Positions 1-50,483 are shown, numbered from the stretch's first letter. The stretch is 64,000 nucleotides of DNA from a bacterium (GCA_027484965.1 JAIXRY010000015.1:1622-65621), one strand, 5' to 3'. Numbers and translations are program-made. Notes: generated by a model from the letters alone, not told the origin.

Positions 1-61
1 CACAGTTTCAGAAAGAGAAATCGCCTCGTGAATACAAACACTGGGCACACTTTAATTTTTT

Positions 62-406
62 ATGACAAGATCACTCAAAAAAGGCCCATTCGTTGACGAA
101 AAGCTCCTCAAAAAAATTGAGGGCAAAAAACCGTTAGAAACTGGTGTTATTAAAACATGGTCACGTAGAAGTCAGATTCCACCAGAAATGGTAGGGTTCA
201 CTTTTGGCGTGCACAATGGAAAAAACCACATTGAAGTTCTCGTAACTGAAGATATGGTTGGACACCGTCTTGGTGAATTTTCTCCAACACGTAAATTTAC
301 ACGTCATGGAGGTAAAATGCAAAAAGACCTCGACCAAAAGAAAAAGGAATCAGAAATTGCTGCAGCTAAAGCCGCAAAATCTTCTGGCGACTCTAAAAAG
401 AAATAA
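62..406 (+). CDS. rpsS: 30S ribosomal protein S19, with a short Lys-rich C-terminal extension
   Basis: N-terminus [12 protein letters not shown]..., characteristic of S19. It is the first gene of the S10-spc style cluster. Upstream bases 1-61 are probably the end of rplB. Confidence 0.9.
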
Positions 407-426
407 TTATTTATTAATCAACCTGT

Positions 427-792
427 ATGAAAGCTATACTTAAAAATTATCGCCAAGCACCACGAAAAGTTCGTCTAGTGGGAAATCTCATAAAAGGGAA
501 GCGTGTTTCTGACGCTCTCGTAGAATTAGAATTCCTTGCAAAACGCGCATCTCTCCCTCTCCAAAAACTTATTAGTTCTGCTGCTGCAAATGCAGTTAAG
601 AATAATGGTGCAGACCCTGAATTATTGGTTGTAAAAAACGTTACAGTTGATAAAGGTTTGGTTATGAAGCGTTTTATGCCACGTGCTCGTGGTTCTGCTT
701 CTCCAATACACAAACACTCAAGTCATGTATCTATAGAGCTCGCACAGGTCGAAAAGAAAGAAAAAAAATCTAAAGCTAAAGCTTCAAAATAA
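427..792 (+). CDS. rplV: 50S ribosomal protein L22
   Basis: Conserved L22 sequence (RQAPRKVRLV...A..VK.V.V.KG...KRF.PRARG). It sits between S19 and S3. Confidence 0.9.
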   Translation: MKAILKNYRQAPRKVRLVGNLIKGKRVSDALVELEFLAKRASLPLQKLISSAAANAVKNNGADPELLVVKNVTVDKGLVMKRFMPRARGSASPIHKHSSHVSIELAQVEKKEKKSKAKASK

Positions 793-795
793 TTT

Positions 796-1470
796 ATGTC
801 AAAAGTTGTACACCCATTTTCACACCGTCTCGTAGTGCTTCGTGATTGGAAATCACGCTGGTTTGCTACTGGTCAAAAATATAATGAATTCCTAAAGACA
901 GATGTTCTTGTTCGTGAATTTCTCGCAAAACGTCTTCGTGGCTTCTATGTATCACAAGTAATAATAGAAAGAAATCAAAAACAAACTCGTATCGCTCTAC
1001 ACACTTCACGCCCAGGAATGATTATTGGACGTCAAGGTGAAGGTATTGAAAAACTCAAAAAAGATTTGAGTAAATTCATGCAAAGACAAGACCTTAAGGT
1101 TCTTGGTGAAGTAAAAGTTGATGTTGTTGAAATCAGTGAACCAGACGCAGATGCTGCAATCGTAGCATACGCCGTTGCTGAAGGCTTAGAAAAACGTCTT
1201 CCTTTCCGTCGTGTTTTGAAACAAACAATTGATCGTGTGATGCAAGTTCGTAATGTAAAAGGAGCTCGTATCTACGTTACAGGTCGTTTAGGTGGTGCTG
1301 ATATCGCACGTAGTGAACAAGTAAAGCGTGGTTCTATTCCACTCCAAACTTTCCGTGCTGATGTTGACTTCGCTCGTGAAAAAGCACATATGCCATATGG
1401 AGATCTTGGTATTAAGGTTTGGATTTACCGTGGTGATGTTTTTAATGATAAGGACTCTAAAATAAATTAA
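796..1470 (+). CDS. rpsC: 30S ribosomal protein S3
   Basis: KH-domain-type S3 sequence (GQKVHPFSHRL...RPGMIIGRQGEGIEKLKK). Operon position fits. Confidence 0.92.
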   Translation: MSKVVHPFSHRLVVLRDWKSRWFATGQKYNEFLKTDVLVREFLAKRLRGFYVSQVIIERNQKQTRIALHTSRPGMIIGRQGEGIEKLKKDLSKFMQRQDLKVLGEVKVDVVEISEPDADAAIVAYAVAEGLEKRLPFRRVLKQTIDRVMQVRNVKGARIYVTGRLGGADIARSEQVKRGSIPLQTFRADVDFAREKAHMPYGDLGIKVWIYRGDVFNDKDSKIN

Positions 1471-1476
1471 ACGCGT

Positions 1477-1896
1477 ATGTTATTCCCAAAGAAAGTAAAA
1501 TTTAGAAAGTGGCAAACAGATCGTAGAGATATGTCAAAAGCACCTCATGATACAAGAGGTACGACCATTGCTTTTGGTTCATACGCCCTCAAAGCCGAAA
1601 CAGCTGCACGTGTTCGTTCAAATCAAATTGAATCTGCTCGTAAAGTTGCAACAAGAACAATTACAAAAGTAGGACGTCTCTGGATTCGTATTTTTCCTGA
1701 CAGACCATTCACTGCAAAACCAGCAGAAGTAGGTATGGGAAAAGGAAAGGGAGACCCACAAGGATACTGTTTCGAAGTACTCCCAGGTCGTATTATATTT
1801 GAAGTTGATGGTGTGACAGAAGAAGTTGCCCGCGAAGCCCTCCGTAAAGCAGGTACAAAACTTCCAGTTAAAACACGTATAATTTCACGCCAATAA
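1477..1896 (+). CDS. rplP: 50S ribosomal protein L16
   Basis: KKVKFRKWQ...GMGKGKG motif of L16. It follows S3. Confidence 0.92.
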
Positions 1897-1901
1897 TATT
1901 T

Positions 1902-2144
1902 ATGGAAAAAACAAACACAAAAACAAAAAAGACTCTTGATGGTATTGTTGTATCAGACAAAATGACAAAAACAATTGTTGTTACTGTTGATACTTTCAAA
2001 AAACACCAAAAGTACCAAAAGTACTACAAAATAACAAAGCGTTACAAGGCGCGTGATGAAGAAGGTAAGTACAAGGTCGGTGACAAGGTTACTATCATGG
2101 AAACACGTCCACTCTCAAAAGACGTTCATTTTATCGTCCAATAA
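1902..2144 (+). CDS. rpsQ: 30S ribosomal protein S17
   Basis: [14 protein letters not shown]...HDE...GD.V.I.E.RPLSK pattern of S17. It follows L16 directly, with no room for rpmC. Confidence 0.88.
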
Positions 2145-2162
2145 TTTTTAATATATAGGCTT

Positions 2163-2534
2163 ATGATACAAGATGGAACAGTAGTAAAAATCGCAGACAA
2201 CTCCGGAGGTAAAATCGGGAAAGTTTTCAAAGTGCTCAATGGCGCACATCGTCGTTATGCAGGACTTGGAGACCTCGTTATTATTTCTGTAAAAGTTGCA
2301 GAACCTAGAAAAGGTGTAAAAAAGAAAGACGTTTGCCAAGCTGTGGTTGTTCGTCAAAGAAATGCACACCGTCGTGCTGATGGATCATACATCCGCTTCG
2401 ATGAAAACGCAGTAGTTATCCTTGATAAAGGTAAAAAAGAACCAAAAGGAGGTCGTATTTTCGGTCCAATTCCAAGAGAGATCGCGGAACGTGGATATCA
2501 AAAAATAGTATCACTTGCCCCAGAGGTAATTTAA
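2163..2534 (+). CDS. rplN: 50S ribosomal protein L14
   Basis: MIQ..T..K.ADNSG motif of L14. Confidence 0.92.
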
Positions 2535-2539
2535 ATTGT

Positions 2540-2755
2540 ATGAAAATAAAGAAAGGAGATAAAATTGAAGTAATAGCAGGAGATGATAAGGGAACAAAAG
2601 GAACAGTTCTTAAGGCTTTTCCTCTTTTAAATAAAGTACTTGTTGAAGGTGTTAATATTGTAAAGAAGCATCAAAAATCACGTGTTAGTGGTGCTAAAGG
2701 TACAATAGTCGAAAAACCTCTACCTATTCACGCTTCTAATGTTAAAAAAGTATAA
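2540..2755 (+). CDS. rplX: 50S ribosomal protein L24
   Basis: KOW-type L24 (KIKKGD.V.VI.G.DKGK.G.V). Confidence 0.85.
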
Positions 2756-2765
2756 CTAAAATTAT

Positions 2766-3305
2766 ATGCAAACAGTAAAAGAAAAAGAGAATAATATTTT
2801 TGATGTTATGAAAGGAGAGTTTGGCTACAAAAACAAACTCGCTGCACCAAGATTTGTAAAGGTTGTAGTTTCTTCAGGAACAGGTACAAAAATGAAAAGA
2901 GATCGTGGGACTAATGATTTAGTTTCAGACCGTCTTTCAAAAATCACAGGACAAAAAACAGCTGTTCGTGGAGCAAAGCAATCAGTTGCAAGTTTCAAAA
3001 TTCGTGAAGGGGATCCAATCGGTGTTACTGTAACACTTCGCGGAGCTACTATGTACTCTTTCCTAGAAAAGCTTATCAATGTTGCAATTCCTCGTACAAA
3101 AGACTTTCGTGGTCTAGACAGTAAATCAGTGGACGCTATTGGTAATATGACTATGGCTGTTCGTGAACACACTATCTTCCCAGAATGTACAGACGAAGAA
3201 CTCAAAGATGTATTCGGATTCAGTATTACTATGGTAACTACTGCAAAAGATAAAAAAGAAGCAACAGCTTTCTTTTCAAACATCGGAATGCCTTTCAAAA
3301 AATAA
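2766..3305 (+). CDS. rplE: 50S ribosomal protein L5
   Basis: L5 family sequence; follows L24 in the spc-operon order. Confidence 0.92.
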   Translation: MQTVKEKENNIFDVMKGEFGYKNKLAAPRFVKVVVSSGTGTKMKRDRGTNDLVSDRLSKITGQKTAVRGAKQSVASFKIREGDPIGVTVTLRGATMYSFLEKLINVAIPRTKDFRGLDSKSVDAIGNMTMAVREHTIFPECTDEELKDVFGFSITMVTTAKDKKEATAFFSNIGMPFKK

Positions 3306-3316
3306 GCATTCAAATA

Positions 3317-3350
3317 AAAGACCCTCACTTAGGTGAGGGTCTTTTATTAT
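3317..3350 (+). terminator. Rho-independent terminator after rplE
   Basis: Hairpin AAAAGACCCTCACTTAGGTGAGGGTCTTTT followed by a T-run. Confidence 0.6.
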
Positions 3351-3361
3351 TTTAATTTATG

Positions 3362-3370
3362 TGTTATAAT
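3362..3370 (+). promoter_or_regulatory. Possible extended -10 promoter (TGTTATAAT) for the inserted gene
   Basis: TGnTATAAT-like element about 25 nt upstream of the ATG at 3393. No clear -35. Confidence 0.3.
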
Positions 3371-3392
3371 GCTTGGGAACAATTATAAAAAA

Positions 3393-4058
3393 ATGAGTAC
3401 TTATACAATTTACGCTTTGACCGCTCTGGGAGTGATTTTAGTAACACTTTTTATTTTTAAAAAGTTTATTCCTTCAGAATTTGATTTCTTTTTTACAAGA
3501 ACAAATCTACAAAATCTGCAAAATGGTCTTACTTTTGACCCTTCTCTTACTTTTTTTCGTCTAAAAAAACATTATGATGAAAAGGTTAAAAACGAAAAAG
3601 TTTTTAAATTTTCTCCACAAAAAATGGAAAAATTTAAAAATTCAGCTACGAATGTTTTGGTAAAACATATTATTAACGATGCTAAAAATTCTGGACTTGG
3701 AGTTTCTGCAGTTTTAATAAAAAAACTTGAAGGATCTTGTGAGGTATGTAGAAAAACTGAATATGAAGTTTTGGGATCTGTTTTACAAGGTTTGTCACAC
3801 CATAAAGATTTGCTAACTGCTTTAAAAGAAGAGCTTTCTGTTTATGAAAAAAATCTAGAAGAATCTAGTATAAAAGAAGATCCACTAAAAATTAAAGCTA
3901 TTTGTGTAAATAAATTAATTTTTTTCTTTGTAAACTTAAGGTCTGTTAATTCAGAAACAAAGTTACTTGATCTATTTGAGGCTGATCATAAAAGATTAAG
4001 CCATATTGTAGATTTGAAACCGCAAGGCTTTATTGTTAAAGAACAAAAAAGCGCTTAA
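3393..4058 (+). CDS. Hypothetical N-terminally membrane-anchored protein inserted in the ribosomal spc cluster. The ORF track starts at 3333; the ATG at 3393 is more plausible.
   Basis: Open frame with an N-terminal hydrophobic helix (TYTIYALTALGVILVTLFIF). No recognisable catalytic motif. Bracketed by its own promoter-like element and terminator, between rplE and rpsN. Confidence 0.5.
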   Translation: MSTYTIYALTALGVILVTLFIFKKFIPSEFDFFFTRTNLQNLQNGLTFDPSLTFFRLKKHYDEKVKNEKVFKFSPQKMEKFKNSATNVLVKHIINDAKNSGLGVSAVLIKKLEGSCEVCRKTEYEVLGSVLQGLSHHKDLLTALKEELSVYEKNLEESSIKEDPLKIKAICVNKLIFFFVNLRSVNSETKLLDLFEADHKRLSHIVDLKPQGFIVKEQKSA

Positions 4059-4082
4059 CCCTCTTAATTGAGGGTTTTTTTA
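4057..4082 (+). terminator. Rho-independent terminator
   Basis: AACCCTCTTAATTGAGGGTTTTTTT hairpin plus T-run. Confidence 0.6.
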
Positions 4083-4111
4083 TTGACAAAATGCCTTGAT
4101 TTTGCTATTAT
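4083..4111 (+). promoter_or_regulatory. Near-consensus sigma70-type promoter (TTGACA-17 nt-TATTAT) restarting transcription of rpsN through map
   Basis: TTGACA at 4083-4088, exact 17-nt spacer, TATTAT at 4106-4111. Followed by a leader of about 156 nt before rpsN. Confidence 0.55.
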
Positions 4112-4267
4112 AGGCAAACCTAATTGGTAGATCCATTACTCTCCTTAAGACCTTGTTTTTAATAAGTATTTAAGAAAAATAGTGTGATATCCCTTTTTGG
4201 TTTAGCCTCAGGTTATACATTGAGGAATCTTTATTAGAAACTAGTATAAAACTAGATAGTTAATTTT

Positions 4268-4453
4268 ATGGCAAAAACATCAGTATTAGCACGTGCAGCA
4301 AAAAAACAAAAATATCCGGTTCGCGCAAAGAATCGCTGTTTTAAGTGTGGTCGTGGTCATGGATATATGAGAGACTTCGGTCTTTGTCGTATATGTTTCC
4401 GTGAGCTTGCAAACGAAGGTATGATTCCTGGAGTTCGCAAATCTTCTTGGTAG
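4268..4453 (+). CDS. rpsN: 30S ribosomal protein S14, type Z (zinc-binding, 61 aa)
   Basis: CxxC...CxxC Zn ribbon ([23 protein letters not shown]), typical of S14 type Z. Confidence 0.9.
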
Positions 4454-4474
4454 TTTAATTTTAAAAAATATTTT

Positions 4475-4861
4475 ATGGACCGTATTGGAGACATGTTAAA
4501 TATGATCAAGCTTGCAGGTAAGGCTAAACACCCTATCGCAACAATCCCGCATTCAAAGCAAAAACTTGCTATTTTAGAATGCTTATTAAAAGCTGGTTAC
4601 ATCGCAGGATTATCTGTTCGTACAGAAAAAGGATTTCCTGTTATTGATGTAACTATTCGTTATGAAAATGATGCACCTCGTATTCACGAAGTTGCTCGTA
4701 TTTCAAAACCATCTCGTCGTTTGTACACTTCATCAAAGGATCTACGTCCTTTCCATGGTGGACACGGATCACAAATTCTCTCAACACCAAAGGGGATTTT
4801 GACAGACAAGGAGGCAAAAAAACAACAGGTCGGAGGTGAAATTCTTCTTAGTATTTGGTAA
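4475..4861 (+). CDS. rpsH: 30S ribosomal protein S8
   Basis: S8 family. The annotated N-terminus may be a few codons long. Confidence 0.88.
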   Translation: MDRIGDMLNMIKLAGKAKHPIATIPHSKQKLAILECLLKAGYIAGLSVRTEKGFPVIDVTIRYENDAPRIHEVARISKPSRRLYTSSKDLRPFHGGHGSQILSTPKGILTDKEAKKQQVGGEILLSIW

Positions 4862-5406
4862 TTTACACATTTATGTCACGTATAGGAAAACAACTCATTC
4901 AAATTCCACAAGGTGTTACAGTAACTATTTCTCCAGACGAAGTAGTTGTTGCAGGACCTCTTGGAACACTCAAGAAAAATACTCTTGATTTGGTAGCTAT
5001 CTCACAACAAGATGGTGTGCTTACATTTACTCCAAGAAAGACAGATAAATTCTCTCGCTCACTTTGGGGAACATATGCTTCACATGTTGAAAATATGATC
5101 CAAGGTGTTGTGACTCCATTCGTTAAAAAACTCATCTTAGAAGGTGTTGGGTTTAAGAGTGAGGTAAAAGGAACAGATCTTCATCTTGCTCTTGGATTTT
5201 CACATCCAGTAGTAGTAGCGATTCCACAAGGACTCACAGTTACTGCAGAAAAGAACAATATTACTGTTACAGGAATCGACAAAGATCTCGTTGGATTTTT
5301 CACGGCTCATGTTCGTTCTTTGAAGAAACCAGAACCTTACAAAGGTAAAGGTTTCCGTTACAGTGATGAAATTATTCGTCGAAAAGCTGGTAAAAAATCT
5401 GCATAG
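4855..5406 (+). CDS. rplF: 50S ribosomal protein L6 (true start probably at 4873, MSRIGK)
   Basis: MSRIGK...Q.P.GV.V tandem L6 domains. Confidence 0.9.
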   Translation: MVIYTFMSRIGKQLIQIPQGVTVTISPDEVVVAGPLGTLKKNTLDLVAISQQDGVLTFTPRKTDKFSRSLWGTYASHVENMIQGVVTPFVKKLILEGVGFKSEVKGTDLHLALGFSHPVVVAIPQGLTVTAEKNNITVTGIDKDLVGFFTAHVRSLKKPEPYKGKGFRYSDEIIRRKAGKKSA

Positions 5407-5421
5407 TCTTAATATACATAT

Positions 5422-5772
5422 ATGAATACATTACAGAAAAAAACAGAAAAACGTCTTCGTCTTAAGAAAAAGATTCGTAGTAAAATCTTTGGTACAGCGG
5501 AACTTCCACGTCTTACAGTGTTCCGTTCTAACATCCACATCTACGCTCAACTTATCGATGACACAAAAGGTAACACTCTTTGCTCATTCTCTGATATGGG
5601 TATAAAAGATGGTACTAAAAAAGATCACGCACTTCTAGTTGGAAAAGGAATCGCAGAAGTAGCAAAAAAGGCAGGTATCACTAGTGTTGTTTTTGACCGT
5701 AACGGTTTTAAATACACAGGTCGTGTAAAAATATTAGCTGATGCAGCCCGAGAGGGAGGACTTACATTTTAA
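5422..5772 (+). CDS. rplR: 50S ribosomal protein L18
   Basis: [18 protein letters not shown]...S...[18 protein letters not shown], typical of L18. Confidence 0.88.
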
Positions 5773-5777
5773 TTTTT

Positions 5778-6398
5778 ATGCCTACACCACAAAAAACAAC
5801 AACAACATCATCATCAAACAGACCAGGTTCACGCGGACCAGGATCTAATGGACCAAGACGTCCAGGTGGAAAAGAAGGAGGTCGCACTTATGCAGATCGC
5901 CCAAAGCCAGAATTTGATCAAAAAATTCTAGATATTCGTCGCGTTACTCGTGTTATGGCAGGAGGTCGTCGTATGACTTTTGCTGTAGCAATGGTTATTG
6001 GTGACAAAAAAGGTTCAGTTGGACTTGGTACTGGTAAAGGAGCTGATACAGCGCTTGCTATTGCGAAAGCTTTGAAGAGTGCTCGTAAAGCAATGATTAC
6101 TATCAAGACAACAAAAGACATGTCTTTGCCTCATGAAATAAAAGCAAAAGAAACAAGTTCACAAGTATTCTTGATGCCTAACAAAGGAAAAGGTCTTGTA
6201 GCTGGTTCTGCTGTTCGTGATATTCTTACACTTGCAGGATTGAAGAATGTTACTGCAAAAATTCATTCAGGAAGTAAAAACCGTTTGAATAATGGTCGTG
6301 CAACAATGAAAGCACTTGCTCTTGTTTCTACAAAAAAGAAACATGGTCTTCCAGAAGCAGTTGCTGTTCCAGAAGTAACTCCTGCAATAGAAAAATAA
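5778..6398 (+). CDS. rpsE: 30S ribosomal protein S5 with a roughly 45-aa Gly/Pro/Arg-rich N-terminal extension
   Basis: Core RV.RV..GGR...FA...V.GD..G.VG.G.GKA is S5. The N-terminal low-complexity tail is extra. Confidence 0.9.
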   Translation: MPTPQKTTTTSSSNRPGSRGPGSNGPRRPGGKEGGRTYADRPKPEFDQKILDIRRVTRVMAGGRRMTFAVAMVIGDKKGSVGLGTGKGADTALAIAKALKSARKAMITIKTTKDMSLPHEIKAKETSSQVFLMPNKGKGLVAGSAVRDILTLAGLKNVTAKIHSGSKNRLNNGRATMKALALVSTKKKHGLPEAVAVPEVTPAIEK

Positions 6399-6409
6399 TT
6401 TAAAGGCTT

Positions 6410-6853
6410 ATGCAAATGAACACAATTTCTCGTACAATTTCAAATAAAAAAGCAAAAGTAGTTGGACGTGGGGGAGCTCGCGGTAAAACTTCAGGACGCG
6501 GAGGAAAAGGACAAACAGCTCGCGCTGGTAACAAAACTCGCCCTCAAATGCGTGACATCATCAAGAAACTTCCAAAACTTCGTGGACGTGGTAAGAATAG
6601 TAACAAATCAATTACAGAAAAACCTGTAGTAGTTACTCTTGCAACTCTCGAAAAAATCTTTGACACAGGATCAAGAATTAATCCTAGTGTACTACTTGAG
6701 AAGAGACTTATCAGTCGCACACAAGGAGTCCTTCCTGCTGTTAAGATTCTTGCAACAGGTACTCTTACTAAAAAACTTATTGTTACTAGTGAATGTCTCG
6801 TGAGTGCTGCAGCTCGTGTACAAATAGAGGCAGCCGGCGGGAAGGTTTACTAA
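6410..6853 (+). CDS. rplO: 50S ribosomal protein L15
   Basis: Gly/Arg-rich L15 N-terminus (GRGGARGKTSGRGGKG). It follows S5 directly, so there is no rpmD (L30). Confidence 0.88.
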   Translation: MQMNTISRTISNKKAKVVGRGGARGKTSGRGGKGQTARAGNKTRPQMRDIIKKLPKLRGRGKNSNKSITEKPVVVTLATLEKIFDTGSRINPSVLLEKRLISRTQGVLPAVKILATGTLTKKLIVTSECLVSAAARVQIEAAGGKVY

Positions 6854-6865
6854 AACCTAAACTCT

Positions 6866-8137
6866 ATGGATACCTTTATTCTTAAACTAAAAAATTTATG
6901 GAACGATTCTCAATTGAGAAATCGTATCATCGTAGTTATATTGATGCTTGTGGTGTTCCGTGCACTTGCTTCAATCCCAGTTCCAGGAGTAGATGTAGGA
7001 CGTCTTTCAGCGCTTCTTGCTAATAATCAATTCTTTGGTGCACTTAACGTATTTTCTGGAGGAGGACTTTCAACTCTTTCTATTCTAATGCTTGGTGTTG
7101 GTCCATATATTACAGCTTCTATCATTATGCAACTTTTGACTATGATGATTCCAAGTCTGAAGTCTATGTATCAAGAAGAAGGTGAGATTGGACGTATAAA
7201 ATTTACTCAATACTCACGCTTCCTTACTATTCCTCTTGCTGCACTTCAAGGATTTTCACTTCTATTGCTTCTTTCAAAGCAAGGAGTGATTCCAGGACTC
7301 GATCAATTTGGATATTTCCTAAGTATCTCTGTTATTGTTGCTGGTTCAATGCTCCTTATGTGGATTGGAGAACTTCTTTCAGAATTCGGTATTGGAAATG
7401 GAATATCACTTCTAATATTCGCTGGTATCGTAGCTTCTGTTCCTACACATATTAGTCAATTACTTTATACATTTGACGCTTCACAAATACCTACACTTCT
7501 AGCGTTTGTGGGTGCAGGTATTCTTGTTATTGCTGGTGTTGTATATATTACAGAAGCAGAAAGATTGATTCCTATTACTTATACAAAACAAGTAAAGGGA
7601 AGCCGTGTGGTTGGTGGAAATTCAACATACCTCCCACTTAAACTTAATCAAGCAGGAGTTATTCCAATAATTTTTGCGCTCTCAATCTTGTTATTTCCAC
7701 AACTCATTGCAACTTTCTTGAGTGGAATGGAAAGTGCTACAGCTCAATCAGTGGCAAGATCTCTTACACTGTTTTTGCAAAGTACATGGTTATACTCTCT
7801 TGTATACTTCATACTCGTAACTCTCTTCACTTACTTCTACACTGCTGTTACTTTTGACCCAGAACAAATGGCTACAAACTTACAAAAGAATGGAGCATTT
7901 ATTCCAGGAATTCGTCCAGGACAATCAACAACAGAGTACCTTACAAAATTAGTTACTAAACTCACTTTTGTAGGAGCTATATTCCTTGGAATCGTAGCGG
8001 TATTGCCACTTATTGTGAGAACACTTACAGGTATTAATTCTGTTGCTCTTGGAGGTACCGCGCTTTTGATTGTTGTCTCTGTTGTTCTTGATTTGATCAA
8101 GCGTACAGATGCACAGCTTTCATTACAAGAATACTAA
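6866..8137 (+). CDS. secY: Preprotein translocase subunit SecY
   Basis: 10-TM protein with the SecY signature. Conserved position after rplO. Confidence 0.92.
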   Translation: MDTFILKLKNLWNDSQLRNRIIVVILMLVVFRALASIPVPGVDVGRLSALLANNQFFGALNVFSGGGLSTLSILMLGVGPYITASIIMQLLTMMIPSLKSMYQEEGEIGRIKFTQYSRFLTIPLAALQGFSLLLLLSKQGVIPGLDQFGYFLSISVIVAGSMLLMWIGELLSEFGIGNGISLLIFAGIVASVPTHISQLLYTFDASQIPTLLAFVGAGILVIAGVVYITEAERLIPITYTKQVKGSRVVGGNSTYLPLKLNQAGVIPIIFALSILLFPQLIATFLSGMESATAQSVARSLTLFLQSTWLYSLVYFILVTLFTYFYTAVTFDPEQMATNLQKNGAFIPGIRPGQSTTEYLTKLVTKLTFVGAIFLGIVAVLPLIVRTLTGINSVALGGTALLIVVSVVLDLIKRTDAQLSLQEY

Positions 8138-8187
8138 GAATAGTTACCAGTAATCAGTAACAAATAACTAGTAAAATACAAGACAAC

Positions 8188-8222
8188 AAAAGCGGGACCC
8201 GAAGGGTTCTGCTTTTGTTTTG
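8188..8222 (+). terminator. Rho-independent terminator (CCCGAAGGG-loop family)
   Basis: AAAAGCGGGACCCGAAGGGTTCTGCTTTTGTTTT. Confidence 0.5.
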
Positions 8223-8241
8223 TGCGTAAATTTATTAATTA

Positions 8242-8844
8242 TTGTATACTTATTTTATGGAACCATACACAATTCTTTTCTTTGGTCGCACAGGAGCAGG
8301 AAAAGGCACTCAAGCTCATCTTCTTCAAGATTACCTAAGAGAGCAAAAAAAGGAAGTTTTATACATAGAAACAGGAGCACGTTTTCGTCTTTTTACGGAA
8401 GAACCTTCCTATACCGCAAAATACACTAAAAAGATTCTTGAAGACGGAGGGCTTTTACCTGATTTTCTTCCTGTTGCACTTTGGGGAAGAATTTTTATGG
8501 AAGAATACAGAGGTGATGAAAACATAATTCTAGATGGACTTGCACGTCGTGAAAATGAAGCAGTTCTTCTTGATTCTGCACTTTCATTTTTTCAAAGAAA
8601 AAACACATATGTTTTAGATATTAATATTTCTAGAGAGTGGGCAGAAAATGTTTTGAAAACAAGAGGGAGAGCAGACGATGATAGTGAAGATATAAAACAT
8701 AAAATGGAGTGGTTTGAACTAAATACTATTCCAGCAATCAATCATTTTAAAAATAATAGTGCTTATACATTTATAGAAATTAATGGCGAGCAAACAATAG
8801 AACAAGTTCATAATGATATTTTAAAAGCATTAAAGATTGTTTAA
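8242..8844 (+). CDS. adk: Adenylate kinase, divergent (start possibly at 8257)
   Basis: P-loop GRTGAGKGTQA, LDGLARR (compare GFPR) and RADDD motifs. Canonical secY-adk-map order. Confidence 0.75.
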   Translation: MYTYFMEPYTILFFGRTGAGKGTQAHLLQDYLREQKKEVLYIETGARFRLFTEEPSYTAKYTKKILEDGGLLPDFLPVALWGRIFMEEYRGDENIILDGLARRENEAVLLDSALSFFQRKNTYVLDINISREWAENVLKTRGRADDDSEDIKHKMEWFELNTIPAINHFKNNSAYTFIEINGEQTIEQVHNDILKALKIV

Positions 8845-9690: not shown

Positions 9691-12426
9691 ATGGAACAAT
9701 TTGATATTCCCAATCTCCCTCAATTTAAATCACCAGAAGAAGAGATCGCTTTTCTTCGTGCTCACATAGAAAAGAAAGAGCAAGAATTAAAAGGTAGTAA
9801 TATTGAAAAAGAAGTAATTGCAAAAGAAACTTTAAATACATACAAAGAGATTTCAAAGAATGATGTTTTTCATAAAAAAATAAACATAGAAACTCATGAG
9901 GTAGAATCTCTTGTACTTCGTCTTGCTCCCGAAACCCATGATAATACCATGGAAGAGTTGCTCGGTATTCTCCTTACAAAAGGGATTAAGAATGCGCTCG
10001 ATGTTGTTCATGGATTAAAGAATCCTCACTTAGAAGATGACTTTCATCGCTTCCTTATACAATACCTTTTGAGTACTCACAAAATACCAGGACTTAAAGA
10101 AGGAAACTCTCTTTGGAAATCTCTTTCAAAAGTTCTTTTTGAAGTAACGCTTCCAGATAAAAATCCTAATGATCCAAGAAGTTTTAAGGATATTATTGCG
10201 ACAATGGAGCAGTTCTTTGCTGGGATGCAATATATAGGTGAAGACAAAGAAAATAAAAATAACGATGTGTATACACTCGAAATTGCTACAGCTCACGGTA
10301 ATTCTGATGTGGTGTTTTATGTAGGTGTACCAAGAGAGAAGAGTGAACTTTTTGAAAAGCAATTACTCTCTATCCATCCACTTGCTCGTATTAATGAAAT
10401 TCCAGATGACTACAATATTTTTTCTGAAGGAAATGAAACTTCTTTTGCTGTGGCAGCACTCGAAGAAAATGACGTCTTACCACTTAAGACATACGAGGCT
10501 TTTGATCGTGACCCAATAGAAATTTTTATTAATTCATTTAATAAAGTATCGAGTGTTGGTGAGGGTGCGTGTATTCAATTTGTTATTAGACCTTGTAGCC
10601 AATCAATACTTAAACATTTCTCAACTCTTTTAGAAAAAGCAAAAAAGGGTGAAGATGTAAAAAAAGAAGATACTCCTTTTGGTGATTTTGCAAAAGATTT
10701 TGGTCATGTACTTCTTGAAACTTTTTGGCTTAAAGAAGAAAAAGATAAGAAAGAAGAAGAAAAGAAACCTGAAGCCGATGGTGTTGTGGTTTCTGGTATC
10801 CAAAAGAAATTAGAAAGTACTATTACTAATGTGAATATTCGCATTATTACTTCTTCAAAAACAAAAACACGTTCAGATATGATGCTCTCTGATATAGAAG
10901 CGTCTTTCTCTCAATTTTCATTACCGGGCGGTAATGGACTAAAGTTTATTTATCAAAAAGAAAATAAACTTCATGATTTGCTTGCGGATTTTTCTTTTAG
11001 AAATTATAGCGAAGAAACAACTCTTGCTCTCAATCACAAAGAACTCGCAACTCTTATCCACTTCCCATACGGTATTACGCTTGCTCCTCAACTCAAAACA
11101 GCACGCGCAGGATCTGGTTCTGCACCATCAGACCTTCCACAAGAAGGAGTCTTGCTCGGATACAATATTTATCGTGGTGTTTCTACAGAAGTGCATATTC
11201 TTCCAGAAGACCGTATGCGTCACTTATATGTGATTGGTCAGACAGGTACAGGTAAGACGTCTATTTTGAAGAATCTTATTGCTCAAGATATTGCCCGAGG
11301 TGACGGTGTTTGTTATATCGACCCTCACGGAACAGATATCCAAGATATTCTTTCCTATATTCCAAAAGAACGTGTTGATGACGTGATATATTTTGACCCG
11401 AGTTATATGCCTCGCCCGATGGGTCTCAATATGCTCGAATTTGATGAAAGATTTCCAGAACAAAAGACTTTTGTAGTGAATGATTTGCTTGGAATATTCA
11501 ATCAGCTCTTTGATTTGAAATCGTCTGGTGGGCCAATGTTCGAACAATATTTCAGAAATGCAGCATTCTTGGTAATGGAAGATGTTGAGTCAGGATGCAC
11601 ACTTCTTGAGATTACTCGTGTACTTCAAGACAAAGCTTTTCGTGATTACAAACTTTCAAAATGTAAAAACCCTATAATCAAACAATTCTGGATTGCAGCC
11701 GAATCTTCAAAAGGTGAGCAAGGGCTCGAAAACTTTGTTACATATATCTCAAGTAAATTTGATCCATTTATCTCGAACGATATTATGCGTCCTGTTATAG
11801 GGCAAGAAAAGTCAGCATTCAATTTCCGTGAAATAATGGATAACAAAAAGATTCTATTGGTAAATCTTTCAAAGGGAAGACTTGGTGATATCAATGCGAA
11901 TCTTATCGGTCTTATCTTGGTAGGGAAGCTTCAACAAGCAGCACTTTCTCGTGTTGATATGTTTGGAAAACAGATAAATGACTTCTATCTTTATATAGAT
12001 GAATTCCAAAATGTTACGACGCCTGCAATTTCTTCAATTCTATCTGAAGCTCGTAAATACCGCTTGTCATTAAATGTCGCTCACCAATACATTGCACAGC
12101 TTCCAGAAGATACGAAGAATGCTATCTTTGGAAACGTAGGTTCTATGTGTGTATTCCGTATTTCACCTGATGACGCTGCATATCTTGAGCCAAAATTCGC
12201 CCCAACATTTACAGCAAATGATATAATGAAGCTTGAAAATAGAGTAGCCTATGCTTCAATAATTGTTAATAGAACTCCGACATCAAAACCATTCAATATT
12301 ATTACAGCTGACAATCCAAAAGGAAACAAAAATATAATTGATTCACTAAAAGAGCTTTCTTATATGAAGTTCGGCCGCCCTCGAGAAGAAGTAGATGAGA
12401 TAATAATTAGAAAATACAATAAATAA
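9691..12426 (+). CDS. Large soluble VirD4/TraG/TraD-family (type IV coupling-protein-like) P-loop ATPase. It has a roughly 480-aa uncharacterised N-terminal region and no TM helices.
   Basis: Walker A YVIGQTGTGKTS. Walker B-like LYIDEFQN, then AHQYIAQL, which matches the TraG-D_C / TrwB AAD-binding signature. A charged coiled-coil stretch (KEEKDKKEEEKKPE) lies in the N-terminal part. Confidence 0.6.
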   Translation: MEQFDIPNLPQFKSPEEEIAFLRAHIEKKEQELKGSNIEKEVIAKETLNTYKEISKNDVFHKKINIETHEVESLVLRLAPETHDNTMEELLGILLTKGIKNALDVVHGLKNPHLEDDFHRFLIQYLLSTHKIPGLKEGNSLWKSLSKVLFEVTLPDKNPNDPRSFKDIIATMEQFFAGMQYIGEDKENKNNDVYTLEIATAHGNSDVVFYVGVPREKSELFEKQLLSIHPLARINEIPDDYNIFSEGNETSFAVAALEENDVLPLKTYEAFDRDPIEIFINSFNKVSSVGEGACIQFVIRPCSQSILKHFSTLLEKAKKGEDVKKEDTPFGDFAKDFGHVLLETFWLKEEKDKKEEEKKPEADGVVVSGIQKKLESTITNVNIRIITSSKTKTRSDMMLSDIEASFSQFSLPGGNGLKFIYQKENKLHDLLADFSFRNYSEETTLALNHKELATLIHFPYGITLAPQLKTARAGSGSAPSDLPQEGVLLGYNIYRGVSTEVHILPEDRMRHLYVIGQTGTGKTSILKNLIAQDIARGDGVCYIDPHGTDIQDILSYIPKERVDDVIYFDPSYMPRPMGLNMLEFDERFPEQKTFVVNDLLGIFNQLFDLKSSGGPMFEQYFRNAAFLVMEDVESGCTLLEITRVLQDKAFRDYKLSKCKNPIIKQFWIAAESSKGEQGLENFVTYISSKFDPFISNDIMRPVIGQEKSAFNFREIMDNKKILLVNLSKGRLGDINANLIGLILVGKLQQAALSRVDMFGKQINDFYLYIDEFQNVTTPAISSILSEARKYRLSLNVAHQYIAQLPEDTKNAIFGNVGSMCVFRISPDDAAYLEPKFAPTFTANDIMKLENRVAYASIIVNRTPTSKPFNIITADNPKGNKNIIDSLKELSYMKFGRPREEVDEIIIRKYNK

Positions 12427-18066: not shown

Positions 18067-18513
18067 ATGATTTTTGCGGAGAATAGAAAAGCAAAATTTA
18101 ATTATCAAATCATTGATAGATTTGAAGCGGGAATACAACTTTCAGGGCAAGAAGTGAAGGCTATTCGTGTAGGTAAGGTGAATCTCGATAGTACTTTTGC
18201 TATTATTCGTGGCGGAGAAATGTTTTTGATTGGAACTCAAATTCAACCCTTTCAAGAGAAGAATGTGGGGGGTGGTTATGACAAAGAAAGAACCAGAAAA
18301 CTCTTATTAAGAAAGGCTGAAATAACAAAATTAGAAAAGATTCTTCACGAACAAAAATTGACCTTAATTGGTACTATGTTGTATAATAAGGGACGCAATA
18401 TCAAGATTGAAATAGCTCTCGGAAAAGGTAAAAAAGAGTTCGATAAACGAGAAACTATTAAGAAAAGAGATATTGATAAAGAGATAAATCGTTTAATGAA
18501 AAACAAGCGATAG
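18067..18513 (+). CDS. smpB: SsrA-binding protein SmpB
   Basis: NRKAKFNYQI.DRFEAGIQL.G.EVK..R...V.L sequence. tmRNA lies immediately downstream. Confidence 0.9.
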   Translation: MIFAENRKAKFNYQIIDRFEAGIQLSGQEVKAIRVGKVNLDSTFAIIRGGEMFLIGTQIQPFQEKNVGGGYDKERTRKLLLRKAEITKLEKILHEQKLTLIGTMLYNKGRNIKIEIALGKGKKEFDKRETIKKRDIDKEINRLMKNKR

Positions 18514-18605: not shown

Positions 18606-18985
18606 GGGAGTGCTAGGCTTCGACAGGTGACATTCTTCTATATGGTGCATGTCGAGTTCGTGTCTATATCGTAAAAAGAGACACAAAACACGAAATGCAA
18701 AAAACACTTTTGCGGTAAAATCTCCTTTCTTCGGATTTGCAGATTTTGCTTTTGCTCGCGCTTAAGCGAACAATGGTTGTTATTTTGACATCTGATAAAA
18801 TTAACAACTATCATACACATCAGGTTGCAAAGAATTCTTGTCTCGAGGATTCTTTAAAGACATAGAGACACCTCTATTACTTTTTTGTTTTGCTTTAATG
18901 TAATAGATCAAATAAGCATAACTACACATGTAGATCTGTATAGAAAATTCATTTGGACGGGGGTTCGATTCCCCCCACTTCCACA
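18606..18985 (+). ncRNA. ssrA: tmRNA (ssrA), one-piece, about 380 nt
   Basis: 5' end GGGAGTGCTAGGCTTCGACAGG...GGTGCATGTCGAG resembles the E. coli 5' tRNA-like domain. The 3' end GGACGGGGGTTCGATTCCCCC + CACTTCC + A forms a T-arm plus a 7-bp acceptor stem with 5' GGGAGUG (one G-U pair). The candidate tag frame begins near 18697 (GCA) and ends ...FADFAFARA at the TAA at 18763-18765. Confidence 0.75.
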
Positions 18986-19032
18986 AATTAAAAAACCAAC
19001 AATTCTGTTGGTTTTTTAATTTGTGGAAGTGG
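18975..19032. repeat. Long perfect inverted repeat (about 27 bp arms) that includes the tmRNA 3' acceptor end. Likely terminator.
   Basis: CCACTTCCACAAATTAAAAAACCAACA / TGTTGGTTTTTTAATTTGTGGAAGTGG. Confidence 0.55.
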
Positions 19033-21961: not shown

Positions 21962-24900
21962 ATGCAGAGTGGCTACACCAAAAACTTACGCGCATTTTTG
22001 CGGAAGAACAGCATCATTTTGTCGCTGGTATTTTTTGCTTTGTTTGGTACTGGTGTAAGTCTTTTTGCTGCTGCTCCAGATACTGAGCCATATCAACCAG
22101 GAGAGACTCTTGACCCCACATGTATTCCAGGTTCTTCAGTAAACTGTACAGTTCGAATATTACCTTCTCAAATTGGTAATGCTGGTAAATTTTTGACTAC
22201 AAACGGAACAACAACATCTTGGGCTTCAGTTCTCACTTCTCCATCTTTTTCTGATGTTACCCTTACAGGTAACACTACATTTCCATCCCTTTCAACTGCT
22301 GGGGGAATATTATACACAGATGGTTCTGGCGTTCTTGCTCAGTCTGCTGCAGGTATTGCTGGCCAAGCAGTTATTTCTGGGGGCGCTACTGGTCCAACAT
22401 ATTTTGCTCCAACATTAGGTTCAATACTTTTTGCTGGAACATCTGGAATTCTTTCTGAAAATAATTCAAATTTCTTTTGGGATAATACGAACAACAGACT
22501 AGGTCTTGGTACAAATACTCCAGTAACATTACTTAATATCGGGACAGGTACACCTACAACAGCTTCTAGTGGAATTCAGTTTGGTACAGATGTGCTTGCA
22601 AACCTATATCGTAACGATACAGGGAATATTAAAACAGATGGTGTTTTGAATGTGGGCGACCAATTGAACGTGGGGAACAGTTTAGATCTTACAGGTAATC
22701 TCTATTCTAGAGGCGATCTAAGACTTTTGAATAAAGCTGAAAATGGTTGGATTAGTTTTGCTACTCGCAACACTGCTGGACCAGAAGCTCTATATGACTT
22801 ATCAAATATTGGAACATTGTTTGCTAACCAAATTAATTCTTCTGGAACTATTAGTGCAACACTACCTTCAGGCTCATTTGGTACTATCGCTTCTTTTGGA
22901 GCAAATGGTGCTGCTGGTCTTATAAATATCGGATATGAAGATGGTAGTGGAATTAGTAGTATTACCGGCTCTGGTTTCGGACCTTTCCAAGTCGCTTCAT
23001 CTGCGAATAATAATATTATTATCAATCCAGGTAGTGGTAATGTGGGAATCGGAGCAGTGAGTCCTACTCAAAAATTGGAGGTGAATGGAAATATATTGGT
23101 AGGTGGCAGTAATGCATATTTGTATTTTAGAGATGAATATAATTACATTAAAAATGCTGATGGATTACCTGTAGATGTAAAAGGTCATCATGGAGTGCGC
23201 GCATACAATGATCTTGGGGAAGTTGCACGTTTTGGTACAGCGAGTGATTCTTTGAATTCTTACTTTAATGGAAATGTCGGTATTGGTTCTGTTACACCTT
23301 CCGCAAGACTTGAAGTTAAATCAGAATTAAATACAGACAGTGTTATTGCTATTAATACAAATTCTGTAGATTTTGATTCATACCTTTCACTTCAAGAAGC
23401 TGGTGTTGAAAAATGGAAATTCCGCAATCAAGGTGATAGTGGAGATAAGCTTCGTATTGGAAGTGCTACAAACCCTCTAGCAATTTCTGTTTCTCAAATG
23501 GGACAAATAAGTTTGGGTTCAACAACAGCTAGTGCTTGGTTGTATCTTCCAGCAAGTACTGGAGCTGGTCAAACTGCGCCACTTAAATTCACAGCAGGGA
23601 CAAATATTATATCTCCAGAAACAGGTGCTGTAGAATATGATGGTACTCAGCTATTTTTTACTCCAGCTTCTACTCGTAATATTTTGGCGCAAGTGTCAGG
23701 ATCTACAGCTCTTACTTCAGGATCTATTCCTTTTGCAACAACTTCAGGATATCTCACACAAGATAATTCAAATTTCTTCTGGGACGATACTAATAACAGA
23801 TTAGGTATTGGTACAGCGAGTCCAGCAACAGCATTGGATGTAAATGGTGTTGTTAAAGCCTCATTTCTAAGAGCAGATTATTTAAATACAACAAATAATG
23901 GAGCAACTATTATAGGTAATTTTACAAGTGAAAACCGTATTTATGACCAAGCTGGTACATGGTTAATGACTTTAAAATCAGGTAACGTCGGTATTGGTAC
24001 AACTAATCCAGGTTATAGATTAGATATTCTAGGTTCTAGTACGTCTGGTGTCTCTGCTTCAACTCAAATTCTCGGTGGAACAGGAACAAGTGCTGGTGGT
24101 CTTAGATTAGGTGCTTGGAGTGCTTCATACGGAGGATTTTGGTCTGCGAGTGTAATACCTTCATCTACTAACTATGCTCTTATTTCAAATGGTGCTGATA
24201 CAGCATTAAACACTACTTCAACTGGAGGAATTTATATAAACAATAGTACACAAGCTTTAGGGTGGAATATTAACGGAGTTTCAATCGGAGCAGCCGCTAC
24301 TAGTCAAGGACAGCTTGCTGTTATAAATCAAAATAATTCTCGTGTAGCTCTTGTAGTAAGAGCTACCACTTCTCAAACCGCAAATCTTACACAATGGCAA
24401 GATAATACAGGTGTTGTATTGGCTAGAATAGCTTCTAATGGTGCATTAAGTGTAGGTACAACTAACACCTCTGACCTGTATGGTGATTGGGGAGGTGCTG
24501 CTGAAATTCCAGCTGGTGCAGCCAATAGTTCTTCTAATGGTGGAATGTCTCTTTTTGCTGGGGGCACTACTCCTGGAACGAATAAAGCGGGTATTTACTA
24601 TTATCAAGGGGGTACACAATGGCGTTCAGCTGCAGAAGTTTCTAACACAACAAGCGGTTTTGGAAACCTTTTGCTTATGAAGTCTGGCGGTAACGTTGGT
24701 ATTGGTACAACAAGTCCAACCGCAAGACTAAATATTGTTGGAAATATTTTAGGACAAAGCTCTCTAACAGATGCAACAGCTAAAGACTTTTCTATAACTA
24801 CTGGACATCATACAAATTCAGAAGAATCTTTAGCGATGATTTCTGGTATTTCAAATGCTACACAAAATATTATATATTTAGGAGGTGGAAGTTCTTCTAA

Positions 24901-30052: not shown

Positions 30053-30094
30053 AAATAACTAGAGATAGTTATTTTTATTTGTTATAATTATTTT

Positions 30095-30688
30095 ATGAAA
30101 AAAGGTTTTACCCTTCTCGAGCTCCTCATTGTTATAGCAATCATAGGAGTACTCTCATCTATAGTTCTTGTAAGTTTGGGTAATTCCCGCGCAAAAGCCG
30201 ATACTGCTTTTGTAAAACAACAAGCAGATCAGATTAAAAAACAAATGGAATTATATTATCAACAATATGGTAATTATGGTTATTATGCTACCAACATGAA
30301 TATTCGTGGTGGGTATCAACCAGCAGGATATGCAGGATACGTCAATTTTCCAGGTGGCGCAGGGGATTGCTACGCCCCCTTTGCAAGACAAACTGTATCT
30401 GATACTCCGGGGACAATTAGTTATCAGATTGCTTTGATGGTTGGTAAAGCAATGCAAAAAACAAGTGATAATGTATTTTGGTGTTATATTTCACCAGACC
30501 AACAATCATACGCTTTTGCTTTTGTTGGTATGAAGACTGGTCCTAATACTTATTGTATTGATTCTAGTGGTAATGTTAAGGAGTCTAATACTGCAAATCT
30601 AACAACTCCTATAGGAAGCGTCATTGGTGGAACTTTGCAACGAGTTACGAATGCTGCATTACTAACTTCACCTGTGTCTTGTTTGTAA
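30095..30688 (+). CDS. Type IV pilin-like protein (prepilin, class III signal)
   Basis: MKKGFTLLELLIVIAIIGVL, with G|FTLLE at the prepilin peptidase site and Glu5. Confidence 0.85.
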   Translation: MKKGFTLLELLIVIAIIGVLSSIVLVSLGNSRAKADTAFVKQQADQIKKQMELYYQQYGNYGYYATNMNIRGGYQPAGYAGYVNFPGGAGDCYAPFARQTVSDTPGTISYQIALMVGKAMQKTSDNVFWCYISPDQQSYAFAFVGMKTGPNTYCIDSSGNVKESNTANLTTPIGSVIGGTLQRVTNAALLTSPVSCL

Positions 30689-50431: not shown

Positions 50432-50483
50432 ATATTTGTTTTTAGACTAAACAATCTTTTTAAAAGGGAAGATGTAACCCATG

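Follow-up and report, generated by a model that had tools for sequence, protein, structure and literature searches.

The closest described counterpart of the element reported here is the S8 operator of the Escherichia coli spc operon, a site on the messenger RNA (mRNA) through which ribosomal protein S8 feeds back on the operon that encodes it. The ribosomal target of S8 is helix 21 of 16S ribosomal RNA (rRNA), which in E. coli reads A595 A596 G597 U598 C599 A600 on one strand and U638 G639 A640 U641 A642 C643 U644 on the other. The site comprises the U598/A640 and C599-G639 pairs, the bulged U641, the invariant A642 and the triples (G597-C643)-U641 and A595-(A596-U644), and a tyrosine of S8 touches N2 of G597 in E. 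coli (PMC4176348). In the spc mRNA, extra bulged bases have been implicated in an affinity below that of the rRNA, and the E. coli S8-interacting RNA has been reported as confined to Gammaproteobacteria (PMC3616713). Here we describe a structured leader RNA upstream of rpsN that may mimic this site in an uncultured bacterium of the Candidate Phyla Radiation (CPR, or Patescibacteria). It was found in a stretch of 64,000 nucleotides (nt) with 34.6% GC (GCA_027484965.1, JAIXRY010000015.1:1622-65621), hereafter the window, whose start falls inside the S10/spc ribosomal-protein cluster and which comes from a Parcubacteria/Nomurabacteria-like member of the Paceibacterota with a tiny genome.

The ribosome of CPR bacteria is reduced. 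Absence of uL30 is a general trait of the group (Tsurumaki et al. 2022, PMC9297842), and lineage-specific loss of uL29 has been documented from complete CPR genomes, some Peregrinibacteria being named (PMC9297842). An original prediction made on the window had described a rearranged spc operon in which a foreign gene separates rplE from rpsN and in which the genes for uL29 (rpmC) and uL30 (rpmD) are missing. We compared the locus with its relatives and obtained an account that we hold to be probable as a whole: a clade-wide split of the operon, a variable slot at the split and an S8-mimic leader behind it. New here is the 156-nt rpsN leader as a conserved structured RNA, which was absent from the original prediction.

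A split between rplE and rpsN in Paceibacterota

Pfam, NCBIfam and the list of open reading frames (ORFs) gave the gene order rpsS, rplV, rpsC, rplP, rpsQ, rplN, rplX, rplE, ORF221, rpsN, rpsH, rplF, rplR, rpsE, rplO, secY, adk and map, where ORF221 is a frame of 221 amino acids in the gap between rplE and rpsN (coordinates in this cluster refer to the plus strand). Related loci were collected with an L5 protein search taking one genome per GTDB species. This yielded 73 loci, the 33 closest of which belong to Candidatus Paceibacterota or Nomurabacteria, the remainder being non-CPR outgroups and one Amesbacteria locus. All were annotated with the proteins of the window and with hidden Markov models (HMMs) of L29 and L30. 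A metagenome scan with S8 returned a single locus, L076, a near-duplicate of the relative L002.

The rplE-rpsN gap measures 176-3119 nt in Paceibacterota, against mostly 10-60 nt in the non-CPR outgroups and Amesbacteria. No rpsN was found 3' of rplE within the sequence examined in eleven Paceibacterota loci, two of which end less than 700 nt from rplE. In 27 of 34 Paceibacterota loci, a hairpin followed by a T-run is found no more than about 100 nt from the rplE stop codon. In the window, rplE (uL5; 2766-3305; Pfam Ribosomal_L5 and L5_C) is the final gene of the upstream transcription unit, and the predicted intrinsic terminator behind it (3313-3358) consists of a perfect 16-bp hairpin (3313-3348) and a U-rich tail (-25.1 kcal/mol, z = -7.95). 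The hairpin is palindromic and its minus-strand fold is equally good; L002 keeps a hairpin at this place though the sequence of the stem differs. At the other end of the gap, a predicted sigma-70-type promoter (4083-4111) precedes the rpsN operon, with TTGACA, a 17-nt spacer including TG, and TATTAT (11/12). It is the top promoter-like site in the first 10 kb of the window, and a TTGAC-N17-TAnnAT motif, usually with the TG extension, occupies the equivalent position in 21 of the 23 related loci having rpsN.

The gap need not contain a gene. In two relatives (L022 and L024) terminator, promoter and leader are packed into 176-211 nt without any ORF, and because these gene-free gaps already have a terminator and a promoter, the split predates the cargo and is independent of any inserted gene. 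We are highly confident that the split organisation is clade-wide in Paceibacterota and normal for the clade, not a one-off insertion. The claim that a foreign gene had broken the operon therefore holds for the physical split and the gene order, and the two terminators and the TTGACA-17-TATTAT promoter described with it are all present; as the cause, foreign insertion does not hold, given that L022 and L024 are split without cargo and that ORF221 is inherited vertically (see below).

Across lineages, the gap behaves as a variable slot holding different non-ribosomal genes. Those found outside the closest relatives are mostly unrelated to one another and comprise type IV pilin-like (N_methyl) proteins, a 967-amino-acid YadA_head/Peptidase_S74 protein, a PG_binding protein, several small orphan membrane proteins and, in L085-87, MscS together with DsbB. 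Two of these protein types, which occupy the rplE-rpsN gap in relatives such as L005 and L007, also occur one after the other elsewhere in the window (21962-30688): a 2696-amino-acid protein whose C-terminus carries a Peptidase_S74 (tail-fibre chaperone) domain and, behind it, a type IV pilin-like protein.

The cluster is fragmented further in some lineages, because rplE is solitary in L010, L012, L018 and L029. In these metagenome-assembled genomes, labelled Paceibacterota or 'Saccharibacteria', there is no rplN-rplX upstream of rplE and no rpsN downstream within 6 kb. In L077-80 the rpsN operon is not beside rplE and adjoins shikimate kinase and zeta-toxin genes. In the window itself, map is followed by a gene for a 911-amino-acid TraG/VirD4-like coupling ATPase (TrwB_AAD_bind, TraG-D_C; 9691-12426) and not by infA-rpmJ-rpsM-rpsK, so the alpha operon is also detached from the cluster.

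A conserved structured leader RNA upstream of rpsN

Conservation across the clade is plain to see over the 230 nt that precede rpsN, 156 nt of which form the rpsN leader. Its 5' portion, about 90 nt long (4115-4206), is captured by a covariance model named R1 (54.8 bits, E = 1e-8) and contains the putative S8-site mimic. From the outside inwards, the predicted architecture has a helix P0 (approximately 4119-4127 with 4192-4200), an asymmetric internal loop, a helix P1 (4134-4138 with 4180-4184), a 5-by-5 loop, a helix P2 (4144-4149 with 4169-4174) and a variable tip. The same fold came from single-sequence folding of 20 of 22 leaders and from RNAalifold on a MAFFT alignment. Two further hairpins are predicted downstream. 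The first (4206-4225) is missing in L002 and L100; both relatives conserve the second (4233-4264), whose end lies 4 nt from the rpsN AUG. These hairpins may have a regulatory function, but the first was rejected as an S8-controlled attenuator owing to its absence from L002 and L100.

Base-pair covariation was assessed on two alignments. In the model-fitted alignment A3, 91% of the cells of 21 pairs are paired, against a shuffled mean of 71% (0 of 500 shuffles as high), and 36-55% are paired when the 3' partner is slid by 1-3 columns; 18 of the 21 pairs changed on both sides. In the structure-agnostic MAFFT alignment A2, the nine pairs of the core and P1 reach 97.9%, compared with 80% after shuffling (again 0 of 500 as high) and with 18-54% after the same sliding. 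A further alignment, A6, was excluded from the pair counts on account of two spurious minus-strand matches.

In 0.88 Mb (the window and 74 loci), R1 matched only its 21 seed sites. It later matched four non-seed lineages, each time directly upstream of rpsN: L085-87 (46 bits), L077-80 (40 bits), L092 (50 bits) and L100 (52 bits). Over the roughly 1 Mb searched, its matches are confined to sites just upstream of rpsN. Since R1 is present in L077-80, where the rpsN operon does not stand beside rplE, the leader RNA travels with rpsN-rpsH. In L016 (7084-7236) the same core (AAUCCGCAA...UUGCGCGAUAUUC) carries an apical insertion of about 100 nt and scores only 18.6 bits with R1, which indicates that the distal part of the leader tolerates large insertions.

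No Rfam 15 family matched the leader, neither with the whole window at the gathering threshold nor with 3250-4500 at E <= 10, where terminator-driven noise alone appeared; at this same E <= 10, the segment 4112-4267 gave no more than two chance matches, both below threshold and overlapping its edges. Nor did Rfam and the literature searched hold a leader described for Parcubacteria or a ribosomal-protein leader for CPR.

The leader resembles the S8 site of helix 21

Over the 21 sequences, the leader is invariant only at A-U-C-C in its 5' strand and, opposite, at G-N-G-A-U-A-U in its 3' strand. In the window, and in E. coli 16S numbering, the 5' strand of this core reads G4130 (596), A4131 (597), U4132 (598), C4133 (599) and C4134 (600), and the 3' strand reads G4184 (638), U4185 (an extra bulge), G4186 (639), A4187 (640), U4188 (641), A4189 (642), U4190 (643) and C4191 (644). 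The leader nucleotides at U598, C599, G639, A640, U641 and A642 are identical to those of the rRNA. The 596-644 pair is always Watson-Crick and covaries (A-U in 15 sequences, G-C in 6), and the 597-643 pair is A-U in all 21 seed sequences and G-C, the rRNA state, in L077. Position 595 may be A, G, C or U in leaders of the R1 type; A595 is found in the window and in L089, L096 and L081.

The last three loci have an rpsN 5' untranslated region (UTR) without R1, and each contains a minimal hairpin that matches helix 21 almost exactly: CAGAG-CA-AGUC-GGC[ACAUCUA]GCC-GAUACU-A-CUCUG in L089, CGAGG-AA-AGUC-AUU[ACAUCUA]AAU-GAUACU-A-CCUCG in L096 and GAAG-UA-CGUC-ACC[GGUUCUA]GGU-GAUACG-G-CUUC in L081. 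Compared with L089, the L096 hairpin has compensatory changes in both flanking helices. That of L081 has C596-G644 as in Thermus, together with U594, A595 and G645 as in E. coli. The short-hairpin form of the helix 21 descriptor is expected 0.008 times per 330 nt. A looser descriptor was rejected as stand-alone evidence, being too frequent by chance (about 190 matches per 0.89 Mb).

The leader lies on the transcript that encodes S8. Behind it come rpsN (uS14, zinc-binding type Z; 4268-4453; NCBIfam type Z S14, E = 3e-30), which opens the downstream unit, and rpsH (uS8, the proposed ligand; 4475-4861; Pfam Ribosomal_S8, E = 3.2e-35), which is the second gene downstream here and in all of the at least 25 loci with an R1 match. 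The S8 tyrosine that contacts N2 of G597 is conserved in the window as RRLYT, and an A at position 597 would lose this contact.

A helix 21-like match (UUGAUCGCGG...GUCGUAGAUAUCAC) was also seen at approximately 8150-8370 in seven Anaerolineae/Thermoflexales outgroups (L035, L039, L043, L049, L051, L055 and L057). The match falls inside rplR or at its end, in most of the seven extending to the rplR-rpsE junction, and could be a chance match kept by coding conservation or another S8-type site.

Proposed regulation and candidate ligands

Three RNA architectures share only this loop, and each precedes an operon in which the S8 gene stands second; for this reason we judge S8 the likeliest ligand of the leader, a choice we make with moderate confidence. 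The following scheme is read from sequence and comparison. In this subclade, the S10/spc cluster has lost rpmD, as in all CPR, and also rpmC from its canonical slot. Transcription of the upstream unit would stop at the intrinsic terminator just past rplE. The slot behind the terminator, occupied here by ORF221 with its own predicted extended -10 promoter and terminator, would be followed by the sigma-70-type promoter restarting transcription of rpsN-rpsH-rplF-rplR-rpsE-rplO-secY-adk-map. The leader of this second transcript would fold into a stem copying the S8 site of helix 21 in its invariant asymmetric loop, and S8 in excess of free 16S rRNA could bind it and lower the expression of rpsN and the genes downstream, with a feedback logic as in the E. 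coli spc operon.

P0 ends 12-20 nt before the AUG in many relatives, and this genome shows no Shine-Dalgarno sequence; a P0 stabilised by bound protein could there cover the place where the ribosome lands. About 80-140 nt separate the site from the AUG in the window, L002 and L100, where the hairpin at 4233-4264 abuts the start codon; the mechanism could in these loci involve RNA refolding or mRNA stability. What the analysis shows is the gene order, the terminators, the conservation of the promoter, the structure of the leader with its covariation and the identity in sequence between its loop and helix 21; binding of S8, the direction of regulation and an effect on translation or on mRNA stability are what we infer from these features.

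Several points weigh against this scheme. What designates S8 is the mimicry only, and gene content cannot separate S8 from S14, because rpsN always precedes rpsH behind the leader. A direct steric block of initiation in the E. coli style is unlikely in the window, since the site is 80-140 nt away with two hairpins in between. The fold energy of the leader taken alone is unremarkable (z = -0.74), and L031 and L094/95 have split operons with no recognisable leader site. The loose helix 21 descriptor is met by chance about 0.12 times per 330 nt. Compared with E. coli helix 21, the R1 core has A-U in place of G-C at 597-643, an extra bulge between 638 and 639 and an unconserved 595; the reference used for this comparison is the E. 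coli rRNA, which may differ from the organism's own at 597-643, and A597-U643 could either copy that rRNA or be a weakening of the site.

The strongest alternative builds on these same departures and on the chance frequency of the loose descriptor. The leader would be real but would bind S14 or another protein of the operon, or serve only as a 5' stabilising or processing structure, and its likeness to helix 21 would be coincidental. That the first gene past the leader is always rpsN fits S14, and that the structure begins near the predicted 5' end of the transcript is reminiscent of mRNA-stabilising stems. A coincidence would nevertheless have to place the invariant nucleotides of the leader exactly on the S8-contacting loop while the helices covary, and to do so in three builds (R1, L089/L096 and L081) which share this loop only. 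Of these, the two minimal ones amount to copies of helix 21 as it stands in E. coli or Thermus, down to the 2-by-1 loop at 594-595/645, and for hairpins this short the descriptor's chance expectation is as low as given above. To our knowledge, no comparable rRNA site exists for S14. We give this alternative a minor but real share of the probability, and regard S8 as the better candidate.

Absence of uL29 and uL30 from their canonical slots

Upstream of the split, rplP (uL16; 1477-1896; Pfam Ribosomal_L16, E = 1.5e-42) and rpsQ (uS17; 1902-2144; Pfam Ribosomal_S17, E = 2.8e-27, and NCBIfam uS17_bact) are separated by 5 nt (1897-1901), which leaves no room for rpmC. Downstream of it, 11 nt (6399-6409) without rpmD separate rpsE (uS5; 5778-6398; Pfam S5 N-terminal and C-terminal domains, residues 46-185) from rplO (uL15; 6410-6853; Pfam, NCBIfam and ORF list), after which come secY, adk and map. 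No L29- or L30-like ORF was found in any frame of the 64-kb window with small HMMs for which the outgroup loci served as positive controls, and neither a fusion of L29 with rplP or rpsQ nor a copy concealed in a different frame of the window was found. The original prediction was accurate on these points: rpmC is missing from its canonical position, no copy was overlooked in another frame, and rpsE is directly followed by rplO, the absence of rpmD being a known CPR trait (PMC9297842).

The two losses differ in their distribution. L30 is absent from every Paceibacterota locus here and from the Amesbacteria locus, while the same HMM finds it in many non-CPR outgroups. L29 is kept between rplP and rpsQ in seven related loci (L017, L021, L031-33, L011 and L034) and is absent from this slot in 20 others, with rplP-rpsQ spacers of 7-85 nt (-4 in L016); L094/95 and L100 likewise lack it in the slot. 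In L011 (4874-5092) and L034 (2760-3041), a highly divergent L29 in the canonical slot was detected with a clade-enriched HMM only (E ~1e-4), and these copies look like intermediates toward loss. On the strength of this distribution over related loci, we consider the loss of rpmC from its canonical slot to be a subclade trait with intermediate states. The absence of L30 had been described before; that of L29 adds a new example to a type of loss already on record.

Relocation of rpmC elsewhere in the genome, with L29 still part of the ribosome, is unlikely but deserves consideration. What was searched is 64 kb of the genome, so the absence of rpmC applies to the window and not to the whole genome, which weakens the case for loss. 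Ribosomal genes are mobile in the clade, as the lone rplE of L010, L012, L018 and L029 and the detached rpsN operon of L077-80 illustrate, and the divergent L29 of L011 and L034 came to light with the improved HMM only. Against relocation, neither the window, in any frame, nor the 12-kb flanks in 20 relatives without canonical L29 yielded an L29-like ORF. The spacers of only 5-12 nt in the window, its nearest relatives and several other loci suggest a clean deletion, and loss of uL29 in CPR lineages has a precedent in the complete genomes cited above.

ORF221, a fast-diverging gene at a fixed locus

ORF221 (3393-4058) encodes 221 amino acids, with a predicted N-terminal transmembrane helix and an all-helical remainder. 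The length of this putative membrane-anchored protein agrees with the original prediction; its start does not, as the ATG is at 3393 and not at 3394. An extended -10 promoter element, TGTTATAAT, was read from the sequence at 3362-3370, within a string, TTATGTGTTATAAT, that is identical in L002 and L100; a two-hexamer scan missed this promoter because its -35 is weak. A predicted intrinsic terminator (4057-4083), with a 7-bp stem (4057-4076) followed by T7, overlaps the stop codon (-10.9 kcal/mol, z = -2.5). Both this hairpin and the one behind rplE are GC-rich and directly followed by a U tract, the form of a Rho-independent terminator.

The protein has no family in Pfam, NCBIfam, PHROGs or PADLOC, the only hits being weak (a PHROG at E = 0.029 and PADLOC Csm3 at E = 0.0074). 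A word-indexed search of 5.8 billion proteins returned an identical sequence (P0001) and one that is 69-70% identical (P0002), and a further homologue (P0123; 32%, E = 4e-12) came from an exhaustive HMMER search over 1.84 billion representatives. Every homologue is encoded between rplE and rpsN, in the three closest relatives L002, L076 and L100, so that the gene does recur at the same place there; other lineages hold unrelated cargo or none. Between ORF221 and its L002 homologue, the ratio of nonsynonymous to synonymous divergence (dN/dS) is 0.28, and dS is 0.66, compared with 0.05-0.93 for the neighbouring genes. In L100 (Logan SRR22752015), the protein of the gap (3880-4506) is 32% identical to ORF221, in an alignment that covers most of it. 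Identity to the window is 88-98% for each of the 12 ribosomal and SecY proteins on the flanks, and there is hardly any change in the rplE terminator, the extended -10 element TGTGTTATAAT or the rpsN leader. An AlphaFold2 model built on a two-sequence alignment was poor (predicted local distance difference test score, pLDDT, 44.8) and hints at an N-terminal transmembrane helix followed by helices. Lysines and arginines come after the transmembrane helix, which by the positive-inside rule suggests a cytoplasmic helical domain. By its sequence signatures, ORF221 is a real gene under purifying selection, inherited vertically with its neighbours, and an extremely fast-diverging orphan at a fixed locus.

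The original prediction had instead taken promoter, ORF and terminator for a foreign cassette, recently inserted by horizontal transfer into an intact operon. The lack of a known family, the near-absence of homologues and the gene's own promoter and terminator are in keeping with such an event, as is a total GC of 27.8% against 31-42% for the neighbours; the latter is however explained by amino-acid composition, GC content at third codon positions (0.145) lying within the range of the neighbours (0.11-0.35). An 18-nt direct repeat of 83% identity is shared by the two flanking terminators (3328-3345, CTTAGGTGAGGGTCTTTT; 4063-4080, CTTAATTGAGGGTTTTTT), and could be the trace of a duplication from the origin of the cargo cassette, or chance. 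It is the sole repeat, and it lies within the terminators; no integrase, transposase or other mobility gene and no insertion-sequence-like ends were found. Homologues stand at the same site in L002/L076 and L100, that is, in all three closest relatives, with a dS equal to that of the flanking genes. The gene-free relatives L022 and L024 already carry terminator, promoter and leader, and the split recurs in nearly all Paceibacterota loci examined. We consider a recent foreign insertion very improbable and retain vertical inheritance of ORF221 in a pre-existing slot. A chimeric assembly or mis-join, conceivable for an uncultured organism known from metagenome assemblies only, is of negligible probability: an independent Logan assembly (L001) agrees with the arrangement at every base, so the arrangement is not an assembly artefact, and in diverged sequence it recurs in L002, L076 and L100, which derive from other samples.

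Other features of the window

The remaining genes of the cluster are rplN (uL14; 2163-2534; Pfam Ribosomal_L14, E = 5e-45) and rplX (uL24; 2540-2755; Pfam ribosomal_L24 and KOW) upstream of rplE, and rplF (4873-5406) and rplR (5422-5772) behind rpsH, the last two located from gene calls and Pfam on the identical contig L001. The uS5 protein has a low-complexity N-terminal extension of about 45 amino acids (5778-5912; MPTPQKTTTTSSSNRPGSRGPGSNGPRRPGGKEGG...) ahead of its conserved domain. None of the ribosomal-protein genes of the window (40-6900) has a Shine-Dalgarno-like GGAGG upstream, and the 20-nt stretches leading up to the ATGs are rich in A and U (AATTTTATG, for instance), which suggests that the organism may use Shine-Dalgarno-independent initiation.

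Further along, a transfer-messenger RNA (18606-18986, plus strand) starts 93 nt past smpB (18067-18513), a LOOT RNA (RF03000, 67 bits) lies on the minus strand at 45279-45408, and a cluster of four transfer RNA genes occupies 50358-50858, also on the minus strand.

Comparison with known systems

A broader reading goes beyond the account given above. In Paceibacterota, classical spc control would have been replaced: transcription would always be terminated after rplE, rpsN-rpsH would be under their own promoter and S8 feedback through helix 21 mimics arisen or rebuilt at least three times, and the gap would serve these episymbionts as a dedicated hypervariable slot for fast-diversifying genes of the envelope and of host interaction, which encode pilins, proteins resembling adhesins or tail fibres and, as with ORF221, membrane-anchored orphans. 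We put this forward tentatively and find it more doubtful than the split and the leader themselves. With its S8-site mimic before rpsN, covarying and built in several ways, this uncultured and very reduced lineage would offer a clear case of convergence in ribosomal autoregulation, of interest given that the known S8 feedback RNA was reported as restricted to Gammaproteobacteria, and leader and S8 form a directly testable RNA-protein pair. The clade-wide break bears on how ribosome gene expression is coordinated in minimal cells. The split operon, its variable slot and the stepwise loss of uL29 are also useful for the annotation of CPR genomes, in which rpsN and rpmC are easily mis-scored as missing, and ORF221-like genes are candidates for fast-evolving functions.

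With the reduced ribosome described for CPR (PMC9297842), the window shares a rpsE that abuts rplO and a rplP that abuts rpsQ. The uL29 loss reported there concerns some Peregrinibacteria; here it is found in a Nomurabacteria-like subclade of Paceibacterota, with L011 and L034 as apparent intermediates. With the ribosomal-protein leaders of Rfam and of Eckert & Weinberg 2020 (PMC7247131), the rpsN leader has in common a conserved, covarying 5' UTR ahead of a ribosomal-protein operon and, probably, rRNA mimicry. That study mentions neither rpsN, uS14 nor CPR, and the leader has no counterpart in Rfam 15.

With helix 21 of 16S rRNA, the leader shares the six nucleotides U598, C599, G639, A640, U641 and A642 and Watson-Crick pairs at 596-644 and 597-643, to which the leaders of L089, L096 and L081 add A595 and the 594/645 positions. 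It differs in being a short mRNA hairpin and, for R1, in having A597-U643, one extra bulge and an unrelated distal helix. The E. coli spc operator is the nearest analogue: both elements lie on an mRNA encoding S8, both copy the asymmetric internal loop of helix 21, and both have an extra bulged base relative to the rRNA. The E. coli operator overlaps the start codon and coding sequence of rplE, whereas the leader is in the rpsN 5' UTR, past the terminator that follows rplE, and rplE, rplN and rplX are here outside the regulated unit. The leader further departs from the E. coli operator in its strand order, which is that of the rRNA (AUC strand 5', GAUA strand 3'), in the distance of 80-140 nt between site and start codon in the window, and in the A-U at 597-643 of R1. 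Because it belongs to the rpsN 5' UTR and not to the rplE start, the leader is an analogue and not a member of the E. coli S8-interacting RNA family (Fu et al. 2013), and the lack of sequence homology, together with the confinement of the E. coli element to Gammaproteobacteria, argues that the two arose independently.

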